Below, in pieces: positions 2,089 through 42,188 of a stretch of 64,000 nt of DNA. The DNA comes from Escherichia coli. GTDB taxonomy: Bacteria > Pseudomonadota > Gammaproteobacteria > Enterobacterales > Enterobacteriaceae. The DNA lies in the NCBI RefSeq assembly GCF_050920415.1, contig NZ_CP169309.1, one strand, 5' to 3'. The notes under the pieces were generated by a model that searched no databases, was not told the DNA's origin, and saw only the letters and a list, made by a program, of their open reading frames with translations. Numbering within the stretch: the first letter of the stretch is position 1; each line of letters opens with the position of its first letter. Position numbers and translations under genes: made by a program.

Positions 2089-3120
2089 TTAGTCGCTGGT
2101 TGCATGATGACTTGCCTCCAGCGACGGAGTTGACACTGAATGGCGACGTACCAGCGTCGGACTAAAGACATTAGTGATTTCCGGGAGAGGGCGATTATCA
2201 GCCAGCGCCAAAGCCAGTTCGGCAGCCTGGGTCGCCATCGTCACGATTGGGTAACGCACGGTGGTCAGACGCGGGCGCACATAGCGTGACACCAGCACAT
2301 CATCAAAGCCAATTAACGAAATCTCACCCGGTACTTCAATACCATTATCATTGAGAACGCCCATCGCACCCGCCGCCATTGAATCGTTATAACAGGCTAC
2401 CGCAGTGAAATTCCTTCCGCGTCCCAAAAGCTCGGTCATTGCCTGTTCGCCGCCGCTTTCGTCTGGTTCGCCAAATGTCACCAGCCGATCATTGGCCGGA
2501 ATACCACTTTCAGCGAGGGCATCGTAATAACCCTGCAGACGATCTTCGGCGTCAGAAATAGAGTGGTTAGAGCACAGATAACCAATGCGGGTATGACCTT
2601 GTTGAATTAGATGACGCGTTGCCAGCCAGGCACCGTAACGGTCGTCCAGAGCAATACAACGGTTTTCAAAGCCAGGCAGGATGCGGTTGATCAGCACCAT
2701 ACCGGGCATTTGTTTCATTAATGAGGCTAAGTCGGCATCCGGGATCATTTTGGCATGGACGACCAGCGCAGCGCAGCGATGGCGGATCAGTTGCTCAATG
2801 GCCTGACGCTCTTTTTGCTCGTTGTGGTAACCGTTGCCAATCAATAAAAAATTACCAGTGTGATAAGCCACCTGTTCGACCGCTTTCACCATTGCACCGA
2901 AAAACGGATCGGAAACATCACCAACGACCAGACCGATCGTTTCAGTGGTCTGCTGCGCCAGCGCACGGGCGTTGGCGTTCGGGTGATAGCTAAGAGACTC
3001 CATTGCACTATGCACAGCCAGTCGGGAAGCTTCGCTGGCTTTGGGTGAATTATTAATGACGCGGGAAACGGTGGCGACTGAAACGCCTGCCAGTCGGGCT
3101 ACATCCTTTATGGTCGCCAT
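2089..3120 (-). CDS. galR: Galactose operon repressor (LacI family)
   Basis: 343 aa ORF starting MATIKDVARLAGVSVATVSRV (HTH); recognised as GalR. Confidence 0.95.
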   Translation of the reverse strand: MATIKDVARLAGVSVATVSRVINNSPKASEASRLAVHSAMESLSYHPNANARALAQQTTETIGLVVGDVSDPFFGAMVKAVEQVAYHTGNFLLIGNGYHNEQKERQAIEQLIRHRCAALVVHAKMIPDADLASLMKQMPGMVLINRILPGFENRCIALDDRYGAWLATRHLIQQGHTRIGYLCSNHSISDAEDRLQGYYDALAESGIPANDRLVTFGEPDESGGEQAMTELLGRGRNFTAVACYNDSMAAGAMGVLNDNGIEVPGEISLIGFDDVLVSRYVRPRLTTVRYPIVTMATQAAELALALADNRPLPEITNVFSPTLVRRHSVSTPSLEASHHATSD

Positions 3121-3333
3121 GAAAATACCTTAGTGGGTAAACGCTTACGTTCTGTCAGTGTTACGGAAAATACCTGTTGGTTCAAGTGGCGACGTGTTTT
3201 CATCGTGGGAATGTGAGCCAAACGCAAATAAATAAGACAAAAAAAGAGATTGCAAACCTTTGGTTACACTTTGCGAAACGCTGTTGCGATTGACCGCTGG
3301 TTGCGTTTGGCTTCAGGTTGCTAAAGTGGTGGT

Positions 3334-3416
3334 CCCAGAGGTATTGATAGGTGAAGTCAACTTCGGGTTGAGCACATGAATTACACCAGCCTGCGCAGAT
3401 GCGCAGGTTTTTTTTT
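3334..3416 (+). ncRNA. omrB: OmrB small regulatory RNA
   Basis: Starts CCCAGAGGTATTGATAGGTGA, ends with hairpin CCTGCGCAGATGCGCAGG plus T9; shares 5' and 3' ends with the adjacent copy; lies between galR and aas, where I recall the OmrA/OmrB pair. Confidence 0.85.
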
Positions 3417-3530
3417 GCCGGCCATCAATCTGTAACAGTAACCGACAATTTACACACCTCGTTGCATTTCCCTTCATTCCTTTGCGTTTTCTCGCTGGCG
3501 AAGAGTCGTTGTGCAGACCACAATCAAGAT

Positions 3531-27260: not shown

Positions 27261-29086
27261 TGAAATTGCAAAAGCAATTACTGGAAGCTGTGGAGCACAA
27301 ACAGCTACGCCCGCTGGATGTGCAATTTGCCCTGACCGTGGCGGGAGATGAACATCCTGCCGTCACCCTCGCGGCAGCCCTGTTAAGCCACGACGCCGGG
27401 GAAGGGCATGTCTGTTTACCGCTCTCACGACTGGAAAATAACGAGGAGTCACATCCGCTGTTAGCAACCTTCGTCAGCGAAATCGGTGAGTTACAAAATT
27501 GGGAAGAATGCTTGCTGGCTTCACAAGCGGTCAGCCGGGGAGATGAACCAACGCCGATGATCCTCTGTGGTGATCGTCTTTATTTGAATCGCATGTGGTG
27601 TAACGAGCGCACAGTGGCACGCTTTTTCAACGAAGTGAATCATGCCATTGAGGTTGATGAAGCTCTACTGGCGCAAACCCTGGACAAACTTTTTCCAGTA
27701 AGCGATGAAATTAACTGGCAAAAAGTGGCGGCGGCAGTGGCGCTGACGCGGCGGATCTCGGTGATTTCCGGCGGCCCTGGCACCGGTAAAACGACCACCG
27801 TAGCGAAGTTGTTGGCAGCGTTAATTCAAATGGCAGACGGCGAACGCTGCCGTATCCGCCTGGCTGCGCCAACGGGGAAAGCTGCCGCGCGCTTAACCGA
27901 ATCGCTTGGCAAAGCTTTGCGCCAGTTACCGCTGACCGATGAACAAAAGAAACGCATACCGGAAGACGCCAGCACCTTGCACCGTCTCCTGGGCGCGCAG
28001 CCAGGTAGCCAGCGTTTACGCCATCATGCCGGTAACCCGCTGCATCTTGATGTGCTGGTGGTGGATGAAGCGTCAATGATCGATCTCCCCATGATGTCGC
28101 GCCTGATCGATGCGTTGCCCGATCATGCCAGAGTGATCTTCCTCGGTGATCGCGATCAACTGGCCTCGGTTGAGGCTGGAGCTGTGCTGGGCGATATCTG
28201 CGCTTATGCCAACGCAGGCTTTACCGCCGAGCGTGCCGGGCAATTAAGTCGTCTGACGGGAAGTCATGTTCCGTCAGGAACTGGCACAGAAGCGGCATCT
28301 TTGCGCAACAGTCTCTGCCTGCTGCAAAAAAGCTATCGTTTCGGCAGCGATTCTGGCATTGGTCAGTTAGCTGCGGCGATCAACCGTGGTGATAAAACGG
28401 CAGTGAAAACCGTTTTTCAGCAGGATTTTACTGATATCGAAAAACGGCTTTTACAGAGCGGCGAAGACTATATTGCGATGCTTGAGGAGGCTCTTGCGGG
28501 TTACGGGCGTTATCTGGATCTGCTGCAAGCGCGTGCCGAGCCGGATTTAATCATTCAGGCGTTCAATGAGTACCAGCTTTTGTGCGCCCTGCGGGAAGGG
28601 CCGTTTGGCGTGGCTGGACTGAATGAGCGAATTGAGCAGTTTATGCAACAGAAGCGCAAAATTCATCGTCATCCGCACTCTCGTTGGTACGAAGGCCGAC
28701 CAGTGATGATTGCCCGTAATGACAGCGCGCTTGGGTTGTTTAATGGCGATATCGGTATTGCGCTGGATCGCGGGCAGGGGACGCGCGTCTGGTTTGCGAT
28801 GCCGGATGGCAATATTAAGTCTGTGCAACCGAGCCGCCTGCCAGAACACGAAACCACGTGGGCGATGACGGTACATAAATCGCAGGGATCGGAGTTTGAC
28901 CATGCGGCGTTGATTTTACCGAACCAACGCACGCCAGTTGTAACGCGAGAGCTGGTTTACACTGCGGTGACCCGCGCGCGTCGCCGTCTGTCGTTGTATG
29001 CCGATGAGCGCATATTAAGTGCGGCAATCGCCACTCGTACTGAGCGGCGCAGTGGTCTGGCGGCGTTGTTTAGTTCGCGGGAATAA
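27260..29086 (+). CDS. recD: Exodeoxyribonuclease V alpha subunit
   Basis: 608 aa; Walker [11 protein letters not shown]; start overlaps recB stop. Confidence 0.96.
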
Positions 29087-29089
29087 ACG

Positions 29090-29290
<201 letters not shown>

Positions 29291-29323
29291 ATTGCGCATG
29301 TCGCATCTGGCGATTTCCACCAC

Positions 29324-30655
29324 TTACCCCAAATCCGCCATCAACACTTTGGATTTACGCTGGTAGTTGTACAACTGCTTTTTGCTCTCGGGCAGTAAAT
29401 CAATATCCACCGGGGTAAATCCACGTTCCTGGAACCAGTGAATACTGCGCGTGGTCAGTACAAACAATTTGCTTAATCCGCTTTGCTTCGCCTGAGCGGC
29501 AATGCGCTCCAGCAAAACCTCGCCCCTTGATGAGCTGCGGTAATCCGGGTGAACGGCCACACAGGCCATTTCCCCAATCTTCTCTTCCGGGAACGGATAG
29601 AGTGCTGCGCAGGCAATAGTCGTGTTATCGCGCTGAATAATGGTGAATTTGTCGATTTCCATCTCCAGTTGCTCGCGAGAACGGCGTACCAGAATACCTT
29701 GCTGCTCCAGTGGGCGAATCAACTCCAGAATGCCGCCAATATCGTTGATTGTTGCGCGACGAATTTGCTCGGCGCTTTCCATCACAATCTGCGTACCGAT
29801 ACCGTCACGTGAGAACAACTCTTGCAACAGCGCGCCATCTTCCTGGTAACTAATTAAATGACAGCGACGTACGCCGCTGCGGCAGGCTTTCACCGCACCA
29901 CGCAAAAAGCGCACCGTACCGGAGTTGTAATCGCCTTTCTCTTCCTGAGCTTCTACCCGCGCTTGTGCTTCGTTAGGGAAAAGCTCGGAGACAATATCGC
30001 CGTCGTCATTAGTGACGCCCTGTGAAGAGCAAAAACCAATCATCTTTTCAGCTTTCAGTTTGATGGCCAGTTGAGTGGCGATCTCTTCCGAGGTCAGATT
30101 AAAGCTCTCGCCAGTGACTGAAACCGCGACCGGCCCCAGCAGCACTATCGCACCGCTGTCCAGTTGACGATGAATCGCATCTTCGTCAATCCGCCGGATA
30201 CGCCCGCTATGGCAGTAATCCACACCGTCATCCACGCCCAGCGGCTGGGCAATAATAAAATTGCCACTGACGACGTTGATATGCGCGCCCTGCAGCGGCG
30301 TGTTATTGAGACTCATCGACAGGCGAGCAGTAATGTCCAGTTGCAATGTTCCCGCAGCCTGCTTCACCAGTTCTAGTGTTTTGGCGTCGGTCACGCGTAT
30401 ATTTTTGTGATATAGCGGTTCGTGGTGATGCGCTGCCAGATTCGCATCGATCTGCGGGCGCGCTCCATAGACCACGACCAGACGGATGCCGAGGCTGTGC
30501 AGCAACCCGATATCATTAACGATACTGGAGAAATTCTCATGCTCAATGGCTTCACCGCCGAGCATGATGACAAACGTTTTTCCCCGGTGGGTATTGATAT
30601 AAGGAACCGAATGGCGGAATCCCTCGACCAACTCGGTTTTACGTTCCTTCACCAC
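29324..30655 (-). CDS. argA: N-acetylglutamate synthase
   Basis: 443 aa from GTG at 30655 ([12 protein letters not shown]); the track ORF extends in-frame upstream. Confidence 0.93.
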
Positions 30656-30670
30656 GGCACACCTCTTTGC

Positions 30671-30704
30671 ATGATTATTCGTAATTATTGTATTTTTATT
30701 CTGT
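30671..30704. promoter_or_regulatory. Candidate ArgR operator (ARG boxes) upstream of argA
   Basis: AT-rich dyad-like sequence TGATTATTCGTAATTATTGTATTTTTATTC just upstream of the argA start; resembles the ARG-box consensus from memory. Confidence 0.35.
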
Positions 30705-30885
30705 TTTTTCACTGGGTGCAAGTGCAAATTTTACGCATGAGCAACTTTTTTATCAGTAATGCCGTGAATATAAAAAGAATGTTTACCGTTTATTAGATGA
30801 CAGATTATGCGTCTTTCGCTAAAGTTTCCGGTCAAATTAGTCGTTTATTTGTTACACAGCTTAGATTTTTTTGCTCGGGAGATGC

Positions 30886-32139
30886 ATGTCGGGATCCAAC
30901 ACAGCAATCAGCCGTCGTCGTTTACTGCAAGGCGCGGGTGCCATGTGGCTATTGAGCGTAAGTCAGGTCAGTCTGGCTGCGGTCAGCCAGGTCGTGGCGG
31001 TGCGCGTCTGGCCTGCGTCCAGCTACACCCGTGTGACGGTAGAATCTAATCGTCAGCTGAAATATAAGCAGTTCGCGTTGAGTAACCCTGAACGCGTGGT
31101 GGTGGATATCGAAGATGTAAACCTGAACTCAGTGCTCAAGGGGATGGCGGCACAAATTCGTGCTGATGACCCGTTCATTAAGTCGGCGCGCGTCGGGCAG
31201 TTTGACCCGCAAACCGTGCGGATGGTTTTTGAGTTAAAGCAAAACGTAAAACCGCAGCTGTTTGCCCTTGCTCCGGTCGCCGGGTTTAAAGAGCGTCTGG
31301 TGATGGATCTCTATCCTGCCAATGCTCAGGACATGCAGGACCCGCTGCTGGCGCTGCTGGAGGATTACAATAAAGGCGATCTCGAAAAGCAGGTGCCGCC
31401 TGCGCAGAGTGGCCCGCAGCCAGGCAAAGCAGGGCGCGATCGTCCGATTGTCATTATGCTTGACCCTGGCCATGGCGGCGAAGACTCCGGTGCGGTGGGG
31501 AAATACAAAACGCGTGAAAAAGACGTGGTATTGCAAATTGCCCGCCGTTTGCGCTCTCTGATTGAGAAAGAGGGCAATATGAAAGTTTACATGACCCGTA
31601 ATGAAGACATCTTCATTCCGTTGCAAGTGCGCGTAGCAAAAGCACAGAAACAGCGTGCTGACTTGTTTGTCTCTATTCATGCCGATGCCTTTACCAGTCG
31701 CCAGCCGAGCGGTTCCTCTGTGTTTGCGCTCTCTACCAAAGGTGCAACCAGTACCGCGGCAAAATATCTGGCGCAAACTCAGAACGCCTCGGACTTGATT
31801 GGTGGCGTGAGTAAGAGCGGCGACCGTTATGTCGACCATACTATGTTCGATATGGTGCAGTCGCTGACCATTGCCGACAGTCTGAAGTTTGGTAAAGCTG
31901 TGTTGAATAAGCTCGGTAAAATCAACAAGCTGCATAAAAATCAGGTTGAACAAGCCGGGTTTGCCGTGCTGAAAGCGCCTGATATACCCTCTATTTTGGT
32001 CGAAACGGCGTTTATCAGTAACGTTGAGGAAGAACGTAAACTGAAAACGGCAACCTTCCAGCAGGAAGTTGCGGAATCAATCCTCGCAGGGATAAAAGCG
32101 TATTTTGCCGATGGGGCGACGCTGGCGAGAAGGGGATAA
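30886..32139 (+). CDS. amiC: N-acetylmuramoyl-L-alanine amidase AmiC (Tat-exported)
   Basis: Start at ATG 30886 ([19 protein letters not shown] twin-arginine signal); amidase_3 domain. Confidence 0.93.
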
Positions 32140-32310
32140 TGTTTTTATTTATTCAATGAATTTATATTTCGTTGAATAGATAATATTTACCTGAATATTA
32201 GACGTTGGTTTTGTGACTGATGTCGAATATTTGAATGTCGGCTTGAAAAATAAGCCGACCATCTCTTTAATTAAGCACAATTCCGTGTAATGTATATGCA
32301 TTAGTTAATC

Positions 32311-32340
32311 ATCTTGTAACTGTTAAATCAGGCAAGGCAA
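32311..32340 (+). promoter_or_regulatory. RAT (ribonucleic antiterminator) element of a BglG/SacY-type antitermination leader
   Basis: ATCTTGTAACTGTTAAATCAGGCAAGGCAA resembles the RAT consensus GGATTGTTACTG-N6-CAGGCAAAACC and overlaps the 5' arm of the following terminator. Confidence 0.65.
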
Positions 32341-32385
32341 TGTTTGAAGTAATTATTACTTCTGACGTGCCTTGCCTTTTTTTTT
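32329..32385 (+). terminator. Leader terminator partnered with the RAT
   Basis: 10 bp stem AGGCAAGGCA / TGCCTTGCCT with ~28 nt loop, followed by T9 (32377-32385), directly upstream of the antiterminator RBS GGAG. Confidence 0.7.
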
Positions 32386-32396
32386 GGAGCTATGGA

Positions 32397-33220
32397 ATGA
32401 TCATCGAAAAAGTCATGAACAATAATTGTGTACAGGCATCGATGAATGGACAGGAGGTTATCATTTCTGGGCCTGGCGTCGGTTACAAAAAAAATATGGA
32501 ATGTCGGTCCCTGAGCATCCGGCTAACCGGATTTTTTATGTCAGAAATGAACAAAAAAATAAACTCTACAAATTGATTGAGCATGTGGATATTGAGTATA
32601 TTTTTGTTGCCGAATAAATAGTGCAATATGCGGAGAACAATCTCGAAAAAAATCTCAATCCATCGCTACTATTGATTCTTGCTGATCATATTTCGAATGC
32701 AATATCCCGAGTCGCTTCAGGCATACAAATTAATAATGTTTTCCTTGATGAAATCAAAGCGTTGTACAAAGCAGAGTATGCGATAAGTCGCGATGCATTA
32801 ACTATCATTAATGAGCAATTCAGCGTTCAACTTCCTGATGATGAGATTGGTTTTATAGCATTGCATATTTTAAATAATTATGAGAATTCAGTTGATTATG
32901 AATCAGTACGGATTATTGAGTTGTCGCAAATAATCACGGGGCTTATTGAAGTTGTTTATAACAGAAAGGTGGACAGAAGTTCATTTAATTATTCCAGGTT
33001 CATGATACACCTTAAATATTTTTCAAGTCGCGTATTATGCAATGAAAAAATAAAACAGAAAGATATTGGTGATCTCTATGAACAGTTTCTTGAGAAAGAC
33101 ATTCTGTTACAGCGCGCAATTCATGAAATTGAAAGGTATTTGTACGCCACTTTTAAATATGAATTGATTTTGGAAGAAAAACTATATCTCTCTATTCGCA
33201 CCAAAGTATTAATGGACTGA
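32397..33220 (+). pseudogene. BglG/LicT-family transcription antiterminator (CAT-PRD1-PRD2), disrupted
   Basis: CAT domain MIIEKVMNNNCVQASMNGQEVIISGPGVGYKK in one frame; continuation ...RIFYVRNEQKNKLYKLIEHVDIEYIFVAE in the -1 frame after an A8 run (32486-32493); in-frame TAA at 32615-32617; PRD region continues to 33220 (FIALHIL, FMIHLKYF conserved His). Confidence 0.8.
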
Positions 33221-33251
33221 TTATATATAACATTTATATGAGATAACCCGC

Positions 33252-34832
33252 ATGAAACAAAAGAAAGCCTGGAGTTTTTTTCAGAGCCTGGGAAAGGCAT
33301 TTATGTATCCCATCGCTCTGCTAAGTGTATGTGGCATGATGTTAGGGCTAGGAAGTGGTTTAGCCAGCGATGATATGGCAAAATTAATTCCACTACTGGC
33401 TATTCCCGTAATTAAAACCATTCTTGATTTTATTGTTAGCCTTGGTTTGTTTGCCTTTGTCAATTTACCTGTATTGTTTGCGATAGCTATACCTCTGGGG
33501 TTATTAAAAGAGAAAGAGGATAAAGCCTATGGCGCTTTTTCTGGCTTAATTGGTTTCATGGCGATGCATCTGGGAACGAACTTTTATCTTAAACAACATG
33601 ACTTATTGGTCGCTGCTGATCAAATGTCGACACATGGGCAAACCATTATTCTGGGAATCCAGTCCTACAATACCAGTGTGTTGGGTGGGATTATAGCAGG
33701 ATTATTAGTCGCCAGTATGTATAAAAAGATCGTTAACTTACGTATTCCTGAATCATTAGGATTTTATAGTGGCCCACGCCTGGTGCCTATTATTACACTG
33801 ATTGTGATGAGTGGATTTGGTCTGATCATCCCTTTTATCTGGCCGCCATTTTTCAATCTTTTCATGCTCATTGGCCACTGGATTTCAACTTCCGGTCCTG
33901 TTGGCTATTTTTTCTATGCAGTCGCCGAACGCGTGACGATACCTTTTGGTTTAAATCACCTGGTGACGTCAGTTTTCCGCTTTACCCCCATCGGCGGATC
34001 GGCAGTGATCGGCGGAGAAGAGTATTATGGCACCCTGAACATGTTTATGGCGTACGTCAAAGAGAATGCGGTCATTCCGCTGGAGTTGGCGGGGAAAATG
34101 GAACAGGGCAAACTGATGATTCAGTATGGTCTGGCTGGTGCCGCGCTGGCGATGTATCGCACTGCTCATGCTCAAAACAGAAAAGCTATCAAAGCATTGC
34201 TTATTTCCGGGGTGCTTACAGTCATTATTGGCGGCGTCAGCGAACCGATTGAGTTTCTGTTCTTATTTGTCAGTCCACTGCTATTTGTCTTCCATGCTTT
34301 TATGAATGGATTCGCCAACATGGTCTTGCCATATATGGGCGTGAAGATGGGATTTACTGGCGATCTGATTCAATTTATTAGCTTTGGCGTATTGCGTGGC
34401 ACAAGAACAGGTTGGCCAATAGCGGTGTGTGTCGAAGTGGCCTATTTCTTTATTTATTACTTTGTGTTCCGTTGGACTATTCTCAAATTTAACCTGATGA
34501 CGGTAGGCCGTGAAGAGTCCAGTCCTGTCACGCTGAACGCTCATGAGGATACGGCTATAGCGGATATCCCAACGCTTGATAAATCAGAGCTGCAAGCAGC
34601 GGAGCAGATGGTTAAGGCACTTGGTGGTAAAGAGAATATTAAATCCCTGGATAATTGCGTAACTCGTTTACGTTTAACAATCGCAGATATGGGATTGATT
34701 GACGAGGCAGCAATAAAAAGAGCTGGCGGAATTGCGGTTGTTAAACTTGATCAAAATACCCTACAAGTCATTATCGGTACTAAAGTCATCGCCTTGCGTC
34801 GGGATATGGATAACTACATGGGGATATGCTGA
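33252..34832 (+). CDS. PTS sugar transporter EIICB, glucose/maltose family, no EIIA domain
   Basis: 526 aa; polytopic EIIC with SEPIEF motif; C-terminal EIIB with phospho-Cys motif NCVTRLR. Confidence 0.9.
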   Translation: MKQKKAWSFFQSLGKAFMYPIALLSVCGMMLGLGSGLASDDMAKLIPLLAIPVIKTILDFIVSLGLFAFVNLPVLFAIAIPLGLLKEKEDKAYGAFSGLIGFMAMHLGTNFYLKQHDLLVAADQMSTHGQTIILGIQSYNTSVLGGIIAGLLVASMYKKIVNLRIPESLGFYSGPRLVPIITLIVMSGFGLIIPFIWPPFFNLFMLIGHWISTSGPVGYFFYAVAERVTIPFGLNHLVTSVFRFTPIGGSAVIGGEEYYGTLNMFMAYVKENAVIPLELAGKMEQGKLMIQYGLAGAALAMYRTAHAQNRKAIKALLISGVLTVIIGGVSEPIEFLFLFVSPLLFVFHAFMNGFANMVLPYMGVKMGFTGDLIQFISFGVLRGTRTGWPIAVCVEVAYFFIYYFVFRWTILKFNLMTVGREESSPVTLNAHEDTAIADIPTLDKSELQAAEQMVKALGGKENIKSLDNCVTRLRLTIADMGLIDEAAIKRAGGIAVVKLDQNTLQVIIGTKVIALRRDMDNYMGIC

Positions 34833-36007
34833 TGGATGTTTTTAATACTCCTATTTCCCGCAAAGGAACATATTGTACCCAATGGGACTTTTGCGAGGAC
34901 AGATTTGGTGTAAAAGATGTATTACCATTCTCTATTTCAGATATGGATCTTCCGATACCGGAAGCTATCATCAGGGCATTAAGAAAACGTCTGGAACACC
35001 CGATTTTAGGGTACAGCCGTTGGCAGCATGATGACTATCTGAATGCGATAGTCAATTGGTATCATCAACAATATAAAACTGAAATCAAACCAGAATGGAT
35101 CACCTATAGCCCAAGCGTGATGTACTCCATTGCTAAAGCAATAGAGTTATTGACATCGCATGGTGATAATATTCTCGTTTTTACACCTGTCTATAATGCA
35201 TTTTTTGATATAATTAAACATAGCGAGAGAAATATTCTGACAGCCTCTTTGATTATAAAAAATGAGGGGGGCTACGCTATCAATTGGCAAGATTTTGATC
35301 TTAAGATTCAAAGCGCAAAGATGGTGTTATTATGTAATCCTCATAACCCGACAGGAACCGTCTGGTCGGAAGAAGAGCTGCATAAAATCGCTGCAAGCTG
35401 TGCAAGACATAATGTCTGGTTATGTTCAGATGAAATTCACAGTGATTTTGTTTTTAATCGTAGCTTTACATCTGCGCTTAAAATAAAAAAAGAAAAAGTA
35501 GTGGTGTTTAATTCGATATCGAAGACATTTAATGTTCCTGCGCTAACAGGATCGTATATGATTTCAACTGACGATAATTTTAATCATAAGTTCAGGACGA
35601 TATCAAGATATCGCGATTTTGTAAACTCCCCATCCGTACTGAATATAATTGCAACTATTATTGCCTATAACGAATGTGAGGGATGGTTAAAGTCATTAAA
35701 GGCACATATTGCCTCTAACATTCAATTCACCCAGCAGTATCTGAACGAAAATACTCCAGAATTGATTGTAAGGCCTGCTGATGGTTGCTATTTTTCGTGG
35801 ATAGATTGCTCTGCTATTGGTTATCCCTTTGATGAATTCTACAGTCGATTAATTCATGAAGGCAAAGTGGGCATTATGGCGGGGAATGTCTATGGAACGG
35901 AGGGGGAGGGCTACCTTCGTCTGAACCTGGCCTGCGGTCGAGAAAAATTATATATGGGGCTTACGCGTCTTGCGAGTGTAATTAAAAATATTAATCAAGG
36001 AAAATAA
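34832..36007 (+). CDS. MalY/PatB-like PLP-dependent C-S lyase (aminotransferase class I/II fold)
   Basis: N-terminus MDVFNTPISRKGTYCTQWD aligns with E. coli MalY MFDFSKVVDRHGTWCTQWD; SxSKTFN PLP-lysine region; alternative ATG at 34826 overlaps the PTS stop. Confidence 0.88.
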   Translation: MDVFNTPISRKGTYCTQWDFCEDRFGVKDVLPFSISDMDLPIPEAIIRALRKRLEHPILGYSRWQHDDYLNAIVNWYHQQYKTEIKPEWITYSPSVMYSIAKAIELLTSHGDNILVFTPVYNAFFDIIKHSERNILTASLIIKNEGGYAINWQDFDLKIQSAKMVLLCNPHNPTGTVWSEEELHKIAASCARHNVWLCSDEIHSDFVFNRSFTSALKIKKEKVVVFNSISKTFNVPALTGSYMISTDDNFNHKFRTISRYRDFVNSPSVLNIIATIIAYNECEGWLKSLKAHIASNIQFTQQYLNENTPELIVRPADGCYFSWIDCSAIGYPFDEFYSRLIHEGKVGIMAGNVYGTEGEGYLRLNLACGREKLYMGLTRLASVIKNINQGK

Positions 36008-36009
36008 AA

Positions 36010-36606
36010 ATGAACAGCACGGATCTTATCCATCTCATTAAACATTTTATGCGTAACGAACATAAAGCAGTTGAAGAAGTTATTGATTCCCCCCTTTCGG
36101 AGGTCGCAAATTTAATTAAAGTATTACAGTCTTGTCAGGGGAAAGTTGTTTTTATTGGTGTCGGTAAGTCCGGTATTATTGCCCGAAAACTCGCCGCAAC
36201 ATTTGCCAGCACTGGAACTCCCTCGTTTTTTGTTCACGGTACTGAAGCCGTACACGGCGATCTTGGGATGGTGGCGAAAGATGATGTTGTTATTCTTATT
36301 TCAAACAGTGGTGAGACGACAGAAATCCTGGCAACACTACCTAGTCTGAAAAAAATGGGTAATTATTTGATCTCCTTTACCCGCAGTCATCGCTCATCGC
36401 TTGCGATAAGTTGTGATTTATCCGTTGAAATTCCCGTAAAAAGTGAGGCGGATAATTTAGGTTTAGCGCCGTCATGCTCATCAACAGTCGTTCTGGTTGT
36501 TGGTGATGCGGTGGCGCTTGCGCTCTCCGAATTGAAAAAGTTTACTTGTGCTGATTTCGGCTTATATCATCCAGGAGGTGCGCTCGGTATTAAAGCAAAC
36601 TCATAA
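36010..36606 (+). CDS. SIS-domain-only sugar-phosphate isomerase, KdsD/GutQ-like without CBS domains
   Basis: 198 aa; GVGKSGIIARKLAATFASTGTPSFFVHGTEAVHGDLGMV and SNSGET closely resemble the KdsD SIS domain; ORF ends where CBS domains would begin. Confidence 0.88.
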   Translation: MNSTDLIHLIKHFMRNEHKAVEEVIDSPLSEVANLIKVLQSCQGKVVFIGVGKSGIIARKLAATFASTGTPSFFVHGTEAVHGDLGMVAKDDVVILISNSGETTEILATLPSLKKMGNYLISFTRSHRSSLAISCDLSVEIPVKSEADNLGLAPSCSSTVVLVVGDAVALALSELKKFTCADFGLYHPGGALGIKANS

Positions 36607-36676
36607 TTTTAGAATATAAAACAGTAACCGGTCACGCCATCTTTTGGGGTGGCGTTCATTGATGTGAGTGTCAGCT

Positions 36677-37624
36677 ATGAAAAACGTTCTGGTCACCGTT
36701 CCCAGCTTTTCAGCGCGTTGTGTTTCTGCCAGCAAGCTGCTAAGAGAAAATCATTTTAACCTTATTATCAAGAATAATGTGGAGCATCTGGTTAAATCAG
36801 AATCCACAGTATTACGAGAATCTATTTGCGCAGTCATTGCCGGAAAAGATTGTTATCAAGCGGATACGTTATCGCGACTACCAGGAGTGAAAATAATATC
36901 GAGATTCGGGACAGGGATTGATAATATTGATCTTCATACGGCTCGACAATCAGGTATTGTGGTCAATAATGCTGTTGGGATTAATTCAAATGCAGTCGCG
37001 GAATTTATCATTGGTCTTATTTTTGCGAGCATGAGAAATATCCCCGGTAGCTATCATGCGATGCAAAATGGTTATTGGGGCGAGTCGCATGGCTGCGAGT
37101 TACAAGGTAAACGTATTGGCCTGCTTGGCTACGGCAATATTGGCAAAACACTGGCGAAAAGGTTATCTGGTTTTGATGTTGAGCTTTTAGCTTTTGACAA
37201 ACAACCCGATTTCCAGGCCGCAGGCAAAGATGGAGTTCAGTTCGTATCAATTGAAGATATCTTTATGCAGTCTCATGTCATCATCGTTCTTTTGCCATTT
37301 TCTCCGGAGCTGGAGAACTTCATTAGTCATAAATATTTGTCGATGATGCGCAATGGTGCTCTTATCATCAACGCCGCAAGGGGAAAGTTGCTGGATGAGA
37401 GTGCTTTACTTCAGGTAATTGAAGAACGAAATGTTTTTGCAGCACTGGATGTGTTTAGCTCTGAACCGCTAGCGCAATTTAGCCCATTGCTACATGCCAG
37501 GAATATCATTACAACGCCGCATATTGCGGCCGCCACCGTTGAGTCATACCAGCAAACCGGGATATACGTTGCCAGGTCGATAATAGATTTCTTTGCAGGA
37601 AGGGAGATAAAAAACGTGCTGTGA
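36677..37624 (+). CDS. NAD-dependent D-isomer-specific 2-hydroxyacid dehydrogenase
   Basis: About 315 aa; NAD-binding GLLGYGNIGKT and catalytic-region TPHIAAAT; start could alternatively be GTG at 36668. Confidence 0.85.
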   Translation: MKNVLVTVPSFSARCVSASKLLRENHFNLIIKNNVEHLVKSESTVLRESICAVIAGKDCYQADTLSRLPGVKIISRFGTGIDNIDLHTARQSGIVVNNAVGINSNAVAEFIIGLIFASMRNIPGSYHAMQNGYWGESHGCELQGKRIGLLGYGNIGKTLAKRLSGFDVELLAFDKQPDFQAAGKDGVQFVSIEDIFMQSHVIIVLLPFSPELENFISHKYLSMMRNGALIINAARGKLLDESALLQVIEERNVFAALDVFSSEPLAQFSPLLHARNIITTPHIAAATVESYQQTGIYVARSIIDFFAGREIKNVL

Positions 37625-37650
37625 GTTCAGCTAAGGAAGATTTCAGGTAC

Positions 37651-37683
37651 AAAAAAACCGCAATCTGTGAAACATATTGCGGT
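37651..37683 (-). terminator. Rho-independent terminator of the tRNA-fMet operon
   Basis: On the minus strand, stem ACCGCAAT / ATTGCGGT followed by T7, immediately 3' of the last tRNA copy. Confidence 0.75.
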
Positions 37684-37702
37684 TTATCAGCATCATAAGT
37701 GT

Positions 37703-37779
<77 letters not shown>

Positions 37780-37812
37780 TCACCGTACTGCTTTACTTCA
37801 TCAAATTTTGAT

Positions 37813-37889
<77 letters not shown>

Positions 37890-37922
37890 TCACCGTACTG
37901 CTTTACTTCATCAAATTTTAAT

Positions 37923-37999
<77 letters not shown>

Positions 38000-38032
38000 T
38001 CACCGTACTGCTTTACTTCATCAAATTTTAAT

Positions 38033-38109
<77 letters not shown>

Positions 38110-38317
38110 TCCGTGGATGCGCACTATACTCCGCTCGCGTTTTCATGCAACCTTTTTTTTACCCAGATCACGGATTTGGTATGATTTTGAGCAAAAACAA
38201 ATCACTAAAGCCTGTTTTTTGTGCAAAATTTGCGTCAGGGAGAGGCTGCTCATTTCATTAAACGCGGCGGTTTGTTATCTTCATTGCGCCTTATTTTTTA
38301 AACTGAAGAAGAGAACA

Positions 38318-39415
38318 ATGAAAGGACGTTGGGTAAAGTACCTTCTTATGGGCACGGTTGTGGCAATGCTTGCCGCCTGCTCTTCCAAACCAACCGATCG
38401 CGGACAGCAATATAAAGACGGGAAATTTACCCAGCCTTTCTCTCTGGTAAACCAGCCAGATGCCGTTGGCGCGCCAATTAACGCCGGTGATTTTGCCGAG
38501 CAAATTAACCATATCCGTACTTCGTCACCGCGTCTGTATGGCAACCAGAGTAATGTTTATAATGCGGTGCAGGAGTGGCTACGCGCAGGCGGTGATACCC
38601 GCAATATGCGTCAGTTCGGCATTGACGCCTGGCAGATGGAAGGTGCCGACAACTATGGCAACGTGCAGTTTACGGGCTATTACACGCCTGTCATTCAGGC
38701 GCGCCATACCCGTCAGGGCGAGTTCCAGTATCCTATTTACCGTATGCCGCCAAAACGTGGTCGTCTGCCGTCTCGTGCTGAGATCTACGCGGGAGCATTG
38801 AGCGATAAATACATCCTCGCTTACAGCAACTCTCTGATGGATAACTTCATTATGGATGTGCAGGGTAGCGGGTATATCGATTTTGGTGATGGCAGTCCGC
38901 TTAACTTCTTCAGCTATGCCGGAAAGAATGGTCATGCCTATCGCAGTATTGGTAAGGTGCTGATTGACCGTGGCGAAGTGAAAAAAGAAGATATGTCGAT
39001 GCAGGCGATTCGTCACTGGGGTGAAACACACAGTGAAGCCGAGGTTCGCGAGCTGCTGGAACAGAACCCGTCTTTCGTCTTCTTTAAACCGCAATCTTTT
39101 GCTCCGGTGAAAGGGGCAAGTGCGGTGCCGCTGGTTGGTCGCGCTTCAGTTGCGTCCGATCGTTCCATTATCCCGCCTGGTACAACTTTACTGGCAGAAG
39201 TGCCGCTGCTGGATAATAACGGCAAATTTAACGGTCAGTACGAACTGCGGCTGATGGTGGCGCTGGATGTCGGTGGTGCAATCAAAGGCCAACACTTCGA
39301 TATTTATCAAGGTATCGGGCCGGAAGCCGGACACCGCGCAGGTTGGTACAACCACTATGGACGTGTTTGGGTGCTGAAAACCGCCCCGGGCGCAGGTAAC
39401 GTCTTTAGCGGCTGA
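38318..39415 (+). CDS. mltA: Membrane-bound lytic murein transglycosylase A (lipoprotein)
   Basis: Start at ATG 38318 (MKGRWVKYLLMGTVVAMLAACSS lipobox); the 38036 track ORF is an extension through the tRNA genes. Confidence 0.93.
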   Translation: MKGRWVKYLLMGTVVAMLAACSSKPTDRGQQYKDGKFTQPFSLVNQPDAVGAPINAGDFAEQINHIRTSSPRLYGNQSNVYNAVQEWLRAGGDTRNMRQFGIDAWQMEGADNYGNVQFTGYYTPVIQARHTRQGEFQYPIYRMPPKRGRLPSRAEIYAGALSDKYILAYSNSLMDNFIMDVQGSGYIDFGDGSPLNFFSYAGKNGHAYRSIGKVLIDRGEVKKEDMSMQAIRHWGETHSEAEVRELLEQNPSFVFFKPQSFAPVKGASAVPLVGRASVASDRSIIPPGTTLLAEVPLLDNNGKFNGQYELRLMVALDVGGAIKGQHFDIYQGIGPEAGHRAGWYNHYGRVWVLKTAPGAGNVFSG

Positions 39416-39491
39416 TGTGTTATTCTGTATACCGTTTTGACGGATACGACAGGGTGAGGGATAACCTCGCCCTTTTTAATTCTGAGGTGCT

Positions 39492-40298
39492 ATGTCTGTG
39501 GTAATTAGTGATGCATGGCGTCAGCGTTTTGGTGGCACTGCGCGTCTGTATGGTGAAAAAGCGTTGCAACTGTTTGCTGATGCGCATATTTGTGTGGTCG
39601 GTATCGGTGGCGTCGGTTCCTGGGCGGCGGAAGCGCTGGCGCGTACGGGGATTGGCGCAATCACACTTATCGATATGGATGATGTGTGCGTCACTAATAC
39701 CAATCGGCAAATTCACGCGCTGCGAGATAACGTCGGGCTGGCCAAAGCGGAAGTAATGGCGGAGCGTATTCGCCAGATTAACCCGGAGTGCCGTGTAACG
39801 GTGGTAGATGACTTCGTGACGCCGGATAACGTAGCGCAATATATGAGTGCCGGTTATTCGTACGTGATTGATGCCATTGATAGTGTGCGACCCAAAGCGG
39901 CGCTGATTGCTTATTGTCGGCGCAATAAAATCCCTCTGGTCACGACTGGTGGTGCTGGTGGGCAGATTGATCCGACGCAGATTCAGGTTACCGATCTGGC
40001 GAAAACGATTCAGGACCCTCTGGCGGCGAAGTTGCGCGAGCGCCTGAAAAGCGATTTTGGCGTAGTGAAAAACAGCAAAGGTAAGCTCGGCGTGGATTGC
40101 GTGTTCTCTACCGAAGCGCTGGTGTACCCGCAGTCAGACGGTACGGTGTGCGCGATGAAAGCCACGGCAGAAGGGCCGAAGCGGATGGATTGTGCATCTG
40201 GATTTGGCGCGGCGACGATGGTGACCGCCACCTTTGGTTTTGTTGCGGTTTCTCATGCGTTGAGGAAGATGATGGTGAAAGCGGCGCGTCAGGGGTAA
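39492..40298 (+). CDS. tcdA: tRNA threonylcarbamoyladenosine dehydratase (ThiF/MoeB-like E1)
   Basis: 268 aa; Rossmann motif VVGIGGVGSWAAEALARTG. Confidence 0.9.
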   Translation: MSVVISDAWRQRFGGTARLYGEKALQLFADAHICVVGIGGVGSWAAEALARTGIGAITLIDMDDVCVTNTNRQIHALRDNVGLAKAEVMAERIRQINPECRVTVVDDFVTPDNVAQYMSAGYSYVIDAIDSVRPKAALIAYCRRNKIPLVTTGGAGGQIDPTQIQVTDLAKTIQDPLAAKLRERLKSDFGVVKNSKGKLGVDCVFSTEALVYPQSDGTVCAMKATAEGPKRMDCASGFGAATMVTATFGFVAVSHALRKMMVKAARQG

Positions 40299-40348
40299 AC
40301 AATCAGGTCGGATGCGACGTGAACGTCTTATCCGACCTGGTTTTGCGC

Positions 40349-40792
40349 TTAACCCTGCTTCGCCGCCGCGATAATCGCCTCGCTTAACGCATTCAACCCC
40401 TGACTGCGAGAGGCGCTAAGTTGCCCACGCAATCCCAGCTCATCAAACAATGCCAGCGGCGACTGTGCCTGCAATTCGGCGGCGGTTTTCCCCTCAACGG
40501 CAGTCAACAACACCGCCAGCAGGCCGCGCACAATGCGTCCTTCGCTGTCGCCAAAGAAATGCATCGTGCCGTTTTCAGCCACGGTATATCCCAGCCAGAC
40601 GCGGTTTTCGCATCCGGCGATCTCTTTAGCCTGCGCTTTTAACTCGTCTGGCAAAGCTGGAAGCTGTTTCCCCAACATAATTAGCTGACGATATTTGTCT
40701 TCCCATTGAGTCAACGGCGCGAAAGTTTCGTGTAACGTCTTTACGGTAACGGTTGTGCCGAACGGATGTCCGGCGAATTGCGGGTTCGTCAT
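40349..40792 (-). CDS. csdE: Sulfur acceptor protein (SufE-like)
   Basis: 147 aa; recognised as CsdE; adjacent to csdA. Confidence 0.9.
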
Positions 40793-41997
40793 TAATCCAC
40801 CAATAATTCCAGCGCACGGTCAACGGCATTCACCAGCGCATCCACATCACTCTTTGTATTATATGGCGCAAAAGAGGCGCGCAGTGTGCCGGTTACGCCT
40901 AATTCTGCCAGTAGCGGCTGAGCGCAATGCTGCCCGGCCCGCAGGGCAATGCCGTACTCCGCCAGCAGCGTCACCATATCGCTGTGATGAACGCCAGCAA
41001 AATCAAAGGCTAGCAGGCTGGAATCCTGGCTGCGGAATGAACGAAAGCCTGGACGTTTTGCCAGCGCCTCTTCTGCAATCGTCGCCAGGCTGCGACTCCA
41101 GCTTTCTGCCTGGTTGATATCGTAATCTGCCAGCCATTCCAGCGCCGCGCTTAACCCAATTACGCCAGCGACATTTGGCGTTCCTGCTTCCAGTTTCCAC
41201 GGCGCAGATTGAGTGATGAAGCCGTCAAAACTCACTTCGTGAACCATTTTGCCGCCGCCCAGCCAGGGCGACATTGCTTCCAGCAGTTCTGGTTTGCCGT
41301 AAAGTACGCCTATCCCTGTCGGGCCATACAGTTTGTGACCAGAGAAAGCGTAAAAATCAATATCCAGTTGCTGAACATCCGCGGGGAAATGCACCGCCCC
41401 CTGAGCACCATCAACCATCACCACCATCCCGGCTGAATGAGCAAAGGTAATCGCTCGTGCCAGATCCGGGCAACCGCCAGTGACGTTAGACATCTGGCCC
41501 AACGCCAGAATCCGACTATGGGGAGTAATCAGTTCAGGCAACAAATCGATATCTGGCAACCGCTGCGCATTAAGCGGCAATTTCACCACTTTGGCTCCGG
41601 TTTGTTGGGCGACCATCAGCCAGGGGACGAGGTTGGCGTGATGCTCTGCCACACTGACAATAATTTCATCGCCCGGTTGCAGACGCGGACGGGCATAGCA
41701 TTGCGCCACCATGTTGATGGATTCAGTGGTGCCACGCGTCCAGACGATAGTTTTGTCATCTGGTGCATTCAGTAATTGCGCCACTTTTTCCCGTGCAGCT
41801 TCGTAACGCGCGGTCAGGCGTTGGGCCTCGGCAAACTGACTACGATGGACGTTTCCGGCGCTCAGGCTGTAAAACTGTCGGGTTGCTTCAACCACGACTT
41901 CAGGTTTAAGCGCGGTCGCGGCACTGTCGAGATAGACGCCCGCATCCTGTAGCGCGGGAAACTGGGCGCGAAATTGCGCGGGATTAAAAACGTTCAT
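40792..41997 (-). CDS. csdA: Cysteine desulfurase / sulfinate desulfinase
   Basis: 401 aa from ATG at 41997 ([13 protein letters not shown]); PLP class V aminotransferase; track ORF has an upstream extension. Confidence 0.92.
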
Positions 41998-42188
41998 GGT
42001 ACTCCTCGGCTTGATGCACCGATCGTGACGCAAAATTCACTTTGATACAAGGAGAGTGCTAACCATCAGAATTATCTGGATATCCTGACGAAGCCGCGTA
42101 AGTAACATATGCTAAATAGTGTTAGGCGTTAATTTTAGCCTGTTAATCAATACTATTAAGATTTATTAATCGCTTTAAGGAGAAGATG

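Follow-up and report, generated by a model that had tools for sequence, protein, structure and literature searches.

The window analysed here, a stretch of 64,000 nucleotides of an Escherichia coli chromosome, contains a five-gene block in the order recB-recD, argA, amiC, five-gene block, four tRNA-fMet genes and mltA (Table 1). Comparison with K-12 showed that homology ends at the amiC stop codon (32137-32139), and in K-12 amiC and metV are only 73 nt apart; the DNA from 32140 to ca. 37700, including the leader that precedes the block, is thus island DNA. As a consequence of this break, the K-12 amiC terminator is gone in island-bearing strains. In ST131, the same operon is found at the amiC side of an island for type VI secretion; the island in the window lacks this secretion part. 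The four tRNA-fMet genes are tandem and identical, with a spacing of 110 nt (37706-38109, minus strand), and K-12 has three in that place (metZ, metW and metV). REP-like elements appear between recD and argA (29073-29283; naRNA4, 54.6 bits, both strands, with a gathering score of 59.5). These and the tRNAs were the only matches in an Rfam scan of positions 28000-42000 with E values up to 10; there was no match at the leader, which neither supports nor argues against an element there.

Table 1. Coordinates of the leader and of the genes of the island operon in the window.
Feature	Position	Strand	Basis
Island-borne upstream regulatory region, presumed non-consensus promoter	32140-32299	+	Conserved blocks
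RAT-like hairpin	32312-32337	+	Fold, invariance, chance expectation, covariance model
Intrinsic terminator (hairpin 32330-32377 plus T9 at 32377-32385)	32330-32385	+	Fold and covariation
Shine-Dalgarno GGAG and ATG of the antiterminator gene	32386-32389; 32397-32399	+	Invariant in orthologs
BglG/SacY-family antiterminator gene (CAT + PRD; pafR-like), pseudogene	32397-33220	+	Frame analysis, alignment, PGAP
PTS EIICB permease, glucose/maltose MalX-like (pafP-like), 526 aa	33252-34832	+	PTS_EIIC + PTS_EIIB, TIGR02004
PatB/MalY-family C-S lyase	34826-36007	+
SIS-domain KpsF/GutQ-like isomerase, 198 aa	36010-36606	+
D-2-hydroxyacid/phosphoglycerate-dehydrogenase-like protein	36677-37624	+

The permease scores 536 bits against the malX model TIGR02004, under its cut-off of 632, and is a MalX/Glc-family EIICB; the Bgl/Sac-type label proposed in a first-pass annotation, made from the sequence alone, does not suit this partner, which is not of the beta-glucoside or sucrose type. 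By analogy with related systems, the EIICB is presumed to be the sensor that controls the antiterminator. The EIICB and the PatB/MalY-type lyase (33252-36007) mirror the malX-malY pair of E. coli, which is under the MalI repressor, and here they are joined to an SIS isomerase and a dehydrogenase, under an antiterminator. The gap between the antiterminator and PTS reading frames is of 31 nt (33221-33251), so a second RAT/terminator would not fit between them. With the covariance-model scan described below, this bears out the earlier view that there is one element only, with none before the PTS gene, and that the whole operon depends on a single leader.

Directly upstream of the antiterminator gene, the leader contains the sequence TTGTAACTG-TTAAAT-CAGGCAAG (32314-32336), which matches the core of ribonucleic antiterminator (RAT) sites; in it, TTGTAACTG occupies 32314-32322, TTAAAT 32323-32328, and the downstream segment CAGGCAAGGC covers 32329-32338. 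The predicted hairpin has five lower pairs (32312-32337, a G.U pair, 32313-32336, 32314-32335, 32315-32334 and 32316-32333), an internal loop UAA/G, three upper pairs (32320-32331, 32321-32330 and 32322-32329) and a top U[UAAA]U. Searching both strands of the window for TTGTNACTG-N6-CAGGCAA with at most one mismatch, we found a single match, against 0.01 expected; allowing three mismatches, the pattern was found six times against 3.1 expected, and the other five matches are at chance level.

To compare the leader with known sites, we used a covariance model of five canonical RATs, namely K-12 bgl t1 and t2 and three LicT-type sites from Clostridium tertium, with the published two-loop structure, and ran it without filters over the whole window. 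The C. tertium sites flank a licT-like gene of one of the Firmicute relatives with ca. 37% identity, consulted for a possible ancestral origin of the unusual lower half in the window, and are fully canonical (GGAUUGU[U/A]AC...GGCAAAACC). The best match in the window was 32314-32335 (15.7 bits, E of ca. 0.013), a local alignment that spans only model positions 4-26, and no second convincing RAT appeared elsewhere in the 64 kb. The upper part of the structure is thus present, with the stem U4-A25/U5-A24/G6-C23, the loop U7-N8-A9 / G22 and the stem C10-G21/U11-A20/G12-C19; at position 8 there is an A, which two of the C. tertium sites also have. The lower asymmetric loop (A3 / A26 A27) and the closing pairs G1-C29 and G2-C28 are absent, since the window has A1 U2 C3 and G26 G27 C28 A29, and in place of the lower loop the predicted fold continues the stem through C3-G26 and U2.G27. 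The resemblance to the RAT consensus put forward in the first-pass annotation is therefore borne out for positions 4-26, the upper two-thirds, which are the only canonical Bgl/Sac-like portion, and fails for the lower loop and the GG:CC stem. An alternative lower helix, 32308-32341 / 32309-32340, was equalled by 31-33 of 500 shuffles; RNAalifold also pairs 32309-32312 with the ATG region, in columns that hardly vary.

The second fold of the leader is an intrinsic terminator, in which AGGCAAGGCA (32330-32339) pairs with TGCCTTGCCT (32368-32377). These ten pairs, previously described as a 10 bp stem followed by nine T residues, form the bottom of a hairpin that extends to 21 pairs, interrupted twice by a single nucleotide; the nine T are there, although the first of them closes the tenth pair, so that the alternative count is 9 bp plus nine T. 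The T run leads straight into the ribosome-binding site, which confirms that the element is just ahead of that of the antiterminator gene. The terminator hairpin has a predicted energy of -27.6 kcal/mol, versus -6.3 kcal/mol for the RAT hairpin alone, and is thus the stable structure that the first reading had anticipated; the 96-nt leader as a whole folds at -30.3 kcal/mol (z = -5.05), a value reached by 0 of 200 shuffles. Eight nucleotides (32330-32337) are common to the RAT 3' strand and to the terminator 5' arm, so that the two folds exclude each other. Given the large gap in stability in favour of the terminator, termination would be the default state.

We compared the locus with those of E. 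whittamii, E. coli strains E69, ST131, N96, FDAARGOS_1292 and O111, Atlantibacter hermannii, two Citrobacter genomes and two metagenome contigs. All the orthologous loci compared have the five operon genes in the same order and the same leader, and this association is kept in Escherichia, Atlantibacter and Citrobacter, at loci that adjoin amiC and at others that do not. The gene upstream of the leader in Citrobacter is not amiC, which ties the leader to the operon rather than to amiC. Among complete E. coli genomes, the leader was found in 1676 of 5426 (ca. 31%).

In an alignment of 11 sequences, the 23-nt RAT core CTTGT[A/C]ACTGTTAAATCAGGCAAG is invariant except for position 8, the base that is flipped out in the LicT complex (PMC3105407), while its flanks diverge. 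The RAT stems are paired in 98.9% of the cells (-6.3 to -7.2 kcal/mol in the orthologs), with an invariant sequence and no covariation; because these stems do not vary, the case for the RAT fold is made by analogy and invariance. The terminator stem is paired in 93.5% of the cells (-24.7 to -36.2 kcal/mol in the orthologs) and three of its pairs are changed on both sides, with a notable G-C to A-U change at 32337/32370 in Citrobacter; its covariation score was reached by 0 of 500 shuffles, for 11 sequences that are fairly close. The nucleotides common to both folds, the conservation of the arrangement across three genera and the compensatory changes in the terminator all speak for the mutually exclusive antiterminator/terminator arrangement that had been recognized in the first-pass annotation.

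Comparison of individual loci yielded further observations. In FDAARGOS_1292, in the leader just upstream of position 1594 of its locus, the 3' arm shows AAACAT instead of TGACG, which removes both interruptions, and its terminator is a perfect 22-bp stem of -36.2 kcal/mol. In E. coli O111:H8 strain 7-16 37A (2450-3096 of its locus), the antiterminator gene is intact and a frameshift is annotated in the EIICB gene; decay affects different operon parts in different lineages. The metagenome-assembled genome GCA_023442805.1 encodes an antiterminator with 36% identity, preceded (ca. 3330-3440 of its locus) by a leader with a terminator and a non-canonical upstream element, GGGTAGTAATTGCGACTAATGAATGCAAGCTAAACC, which may be another RAT variant; downstream of this antiterminator there are an EIIBCA and an ADP-ribosylglycohydrolase-family gene.

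With the K-12 amiC terminator gone, and with a poor T tail in the only other hairpin 3' of amiC (32237-32259), the leader hairpin and its T9 could be seen as a plain intrinsic terminator, serving to stop transcription from amiC or to insulate the island, with only an incidental likeness to a RAT and no antiterminator acting on it. However, a 22-nt core expected 0.01 times per window overlaps the terminator arm exactly, lies directly upstream of a CAT-PRD gene and remains invariant while adjacent bases vary, and the operon of Citrobacter has this leader as well, with a gene other than amiC upstream. We thus consider this explanation very improbable. Moreover, an insulating role is compatible with the RAT/terminator explanation and does not replace it; the absence of the K-12 amiC terminator from island strains implies that the leader terminator probably also stops readthrough from amiC.

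Another candidate mechanism was a translation-coupled attenuation through a leader peptide, because a frame starting at the ATG at 32340, inside the terminator, runs through it and continues in the same frame as the gene that starts at 32397. This ATG has no ribosome-binding site, the frame is just an upstream extension of that of the antiterminator gene, and the ATG is replaced by ACG or AGG in Citrobacter MGH106, in A. hermannii and in both metagenome orthologs. We rejected the candidate for this lack of conservation, and the probability left to it is negligible.

Upstream of the leader, several blocks are kept in Escherichia, Citrobacter, Atlantibacter and the metagenome orthologs: TGTGA (32212-32216), a hairpin (32237-32259), TCTC (32262-32265) and GTGTAATGT (32285-32293), which includes a -10-like TAATGT (32288-32293). 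A consensus promoter scan of 32140-32310 scored no sigma-70 site; from the conserved TA..GT hexamer at 32288-32293 and the invariant CAT.AGT block, we infer that the promoter is located here, with a putative start near 32300. Within this region, TGTGA-N6-TCGAA (32212-32227) resembles a CRP half-site, and its TGTGA is kept in most orthologs. In the hairpin GTCGGCTT...AAGCCGAC, the sequence changes and the pairing potential persists within Escherichia. The TGTGA motif and the hairpin could reflect the architecture of an activator-dependent promoter.

The repaired translation of the antiterminator gene retrieves intact orthologs of 274 aa with 76-92% identity, which carry PF03123 (CAT_RBD) and PF00874 (PRD); the next relatives are LicT-like proteins from Firmicutes, with ca. 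37% identity. Scores against the NCBIfam models were below the cut-offs for LicT (229.7/300 bits), which was the best, GlcT (180.6/320) and BglG (104.5/322). The antiterminator is therefore a member of the family by its domains, and is not an equivalog of BglG, LicT or GlcT. The RNA-contacting positions read G-P-G-V-G-Y-N/Q in the alignment of PafR-family proteins, with Pro at the position of LicT Arg27 and Tyr at that of Phe31. Of the four PRD histidines, this alignment retains three without variation (H98, H157 and H205). Where LicT-like relatives have the fourth, as 'VH' close to the C-terminus, every enterobacterial member carries Arg instead (within the C-terminal 15 residues), which suggests an altered HPr-dependent control.

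These substitutions, considered jointly with the deviant lower half of the site, led us to consider that the paf-type RAT might be a distinct subclass, with a canonical upper loop and with the lower loop and GG:CC clamp replaced by a continuous 5-bp stem, or with the loop displaced two pairs down (32308-32341 / 32309-32340), read by a CAT with Pro at the LicT Arg27 position and Tyr for Phe31. This proposal is tentative, and we would rather expect it to be wrong than right. If true, a different and possibly one-sided recognition geometry would insulate the island system from BglG, and the paf RAT/CAT pair would be naturally orthogonal to the characterised ones. The deviant lower half is in itself a natural test case for the means by which cross-talk between RAT/CAT pairs is avoided.

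In the strain of the window, the antiterminator gene carries two lesions. The loss of one C between 32488 and 32489 turns TAC-AAC-AAA-AAA into an A8 run (32487-32494) and shifts the reading frame at codon 31, which falls within the CAT domain, with a predicted product of 59 aa; additionally, an AAA to TAA change at 32615-32617 creates a stop at codon 74. Likewise, the PGAP note on a 100% identical record reads 'frameshifted; internal stop'. The two lesions are the only differences in 1201 nt with the nearest strain, N96, where the gene is intact, and each lesion allele has an exact match in one of the 5426 complete E. coli genomes; these counts are of exact matches to 71-nt queries and would miss the same lesion accompanied by another change nearby. 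Selection for loss, or a homopolymer sequence error, could explain why both changes are null and have no neutral one close by. With a pseudogene in place of the cognate antiterminator gene, this strain has lost the self-regulating loop, and two private inactivating lesions probably leave the switch locked off. Following the logic of the antiterminator family, the operon would most likely be switched off for good in this strain.

Together, our results support the reading, to which we give a probability of roughly 0.85, that the element is a cis-acting RAT/terminator attenuator of the five-gene operon of the amiC-metV island, comprising the antiterminator, the MalX-like EIICB, the PatB-like lyase, the SIS isomerase and the dehydrogenase. 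Transcription would start in the island-borne region, near 32300, and the weak RAT hairpin would form first in the nascent leader. With nothing bound, the terminator (32330-32377 plus U9) would capture the common 8 nt, and an RNA of ca. 85 nt would be released just before the ribosome-binding site. With an active cognate CAT-PRD-PRD antiterminator, a CAT dimer would clamp the RAT; by analogy, the protein would become active once the EIICB is occupied with the phosphorylation of its sugar and PRD1 is no longer phosphorylated by it. The 5' arm of the terminator would then be sequestered, and the polymerase would read the whole operon, antiterminator gene included, which amounts to positive autoregulation from one leader. 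With the antiterminator lost, as in this strain, termination would prevail at the leader, and the operon would remain silent except under the action of a foreign antiterminator.

In strain CFT073, the metV island carries genes for an antiterminator, PafR, and a permease, PafP, and full virulence in the mouse urinary tract requires both, according to two reviews (PMC8882828, PMC9981650) that cite Baum et al. 2014, Infect Immun 82:4241; besides, genes c3405-c3410 of that strain appear within PAI-CFT073-metV under the annotation of a maltose/glucose PTS (PMC2831201). Only one pair of antiterminator and PTS permease is present in the amiC-metV island and, from island position and gene content, the locus in the window is very probably the published "Bgl-like" pafR/pafP of uropathogenic E. 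coli. The abstract of the original study reportedly states that PafR could antiterminate, calls its targets unknown and describes the promoter as silent in vitro. Unlike CFT073, the window has an island without the type VI secretion part and a pafR pseudogene. The element is thus an expected regulatory element of a well-known kind, and the regulator of the locus is already published; what we add is a RAT whose lower half departs from the canonical form, a partner permease of the glucose family, the autoregulatory layout with a single leader and the private double knockout of the antiterminator. The relevance of the locus comes from its apparent identity with pafRP, reported to matter for urinary-tract infection, and from the presence of leader and operon in nearly a third of the complete E. 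coli genomes. The cis-element is a concrete candidate target for the PafR antiterminator and, in the proposed model, would explain why the operon would be silent without induction.

Among characterised systems, the closest is the bgl operon of E. coli K-12, with proven sites t1 (GGATTGTTACTGCATTCGCAGGCAAAACC) and t2 (GGATTGTTACCGCACTAAGCGGGCAAAACC). As in t1, the RAT 3' strand is the terminator 5' arm and the element precedes the antiterminator gene itself, allowing autoregulation; as in t2, the T run abuts GGAG. Unlike in bgl, where a second RAT/terminator (t2) is found between bglG and bglF, the operon in the window has only one, and its permease is a MalX-like EIICB instead of a beta-glucoside EIIBCA. 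When aligned with these known RATs, the leader upholds the proposed kinship in its core, UUGU-N-ACUG...CAGGCAA, with 15 of 16 positions (4-12 and 19-25) identical to t1, and departs from both bgl sites at positions 1-3, 26, 27 and 29: they have G1G2A3 ... A26A27C28C29 and the window A U C ... G G C A, without the lower loop and closing stem.

So high an identity raises the question of whether a heterologous antiterminator such as BglG reads the leader in this strain, and perhaps generally, making the operon inducible despite its dead cognate gene; cross-talk among BglG/SacY members is indeed documented in B. subtilis (PMC1635312, PMC3105407). Nevertheless, the positions that differ from bgl include 3 and 26, on which, together with the lower loop, specificity mainly depends in characterised systems (PMC1635312, PMC3105407). 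The bgl operon is furthermore annotated as cryptic in K-12, which implies that BglG is normally scarce. Control of the leader by a foreign protein is, in our opinion, improbable, and the RAT/terminator attenuator with its cognate PafR-like protein remains our preferred reading.

The coupling of a BglG-family antiterminator to a glucose-family EII, and the use of a single RAT/terminator, are shared with the GlcT/ptsG system of B. subtilis. There, the RAT sits between glcT and ptsG, unlike in the window, where it is ahead of the antiterminator gene. In GlcT/ptsG, it is the lower part of the RAT that determines specificity, and in ptsG this part has a distinctive triple-base arrangement (PMC1635312), whereas in the window the lower part looks like a plain Watson-Crick extension.

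At the top of the sacB and sacPA RATs, the tetraloop is UAAA and the pair that flanks it is non-Watson-Crick, either A-G or G-G (PMC1635312); the window shows the same UAAA top, with U-U as the flanking pair. PafR-family proteins, with G-P-G, also share the Pro at the LicT Arg27 position with SacT (PMC3105407). Unlike in the SacY and SacT systems, they have Tyr at the position of Phe31, described as 'strictly conserved' (PMC3105407), and the lower RAT loop, present in sacB and sacPA, is absent from the window; in characterised RATs, this loop and the closing stem are contacted by the second CAT monomer (PMC3105407). The permeases of these systems are sucrose EIIs, unlike the MalX-like EIICB of the island operon.
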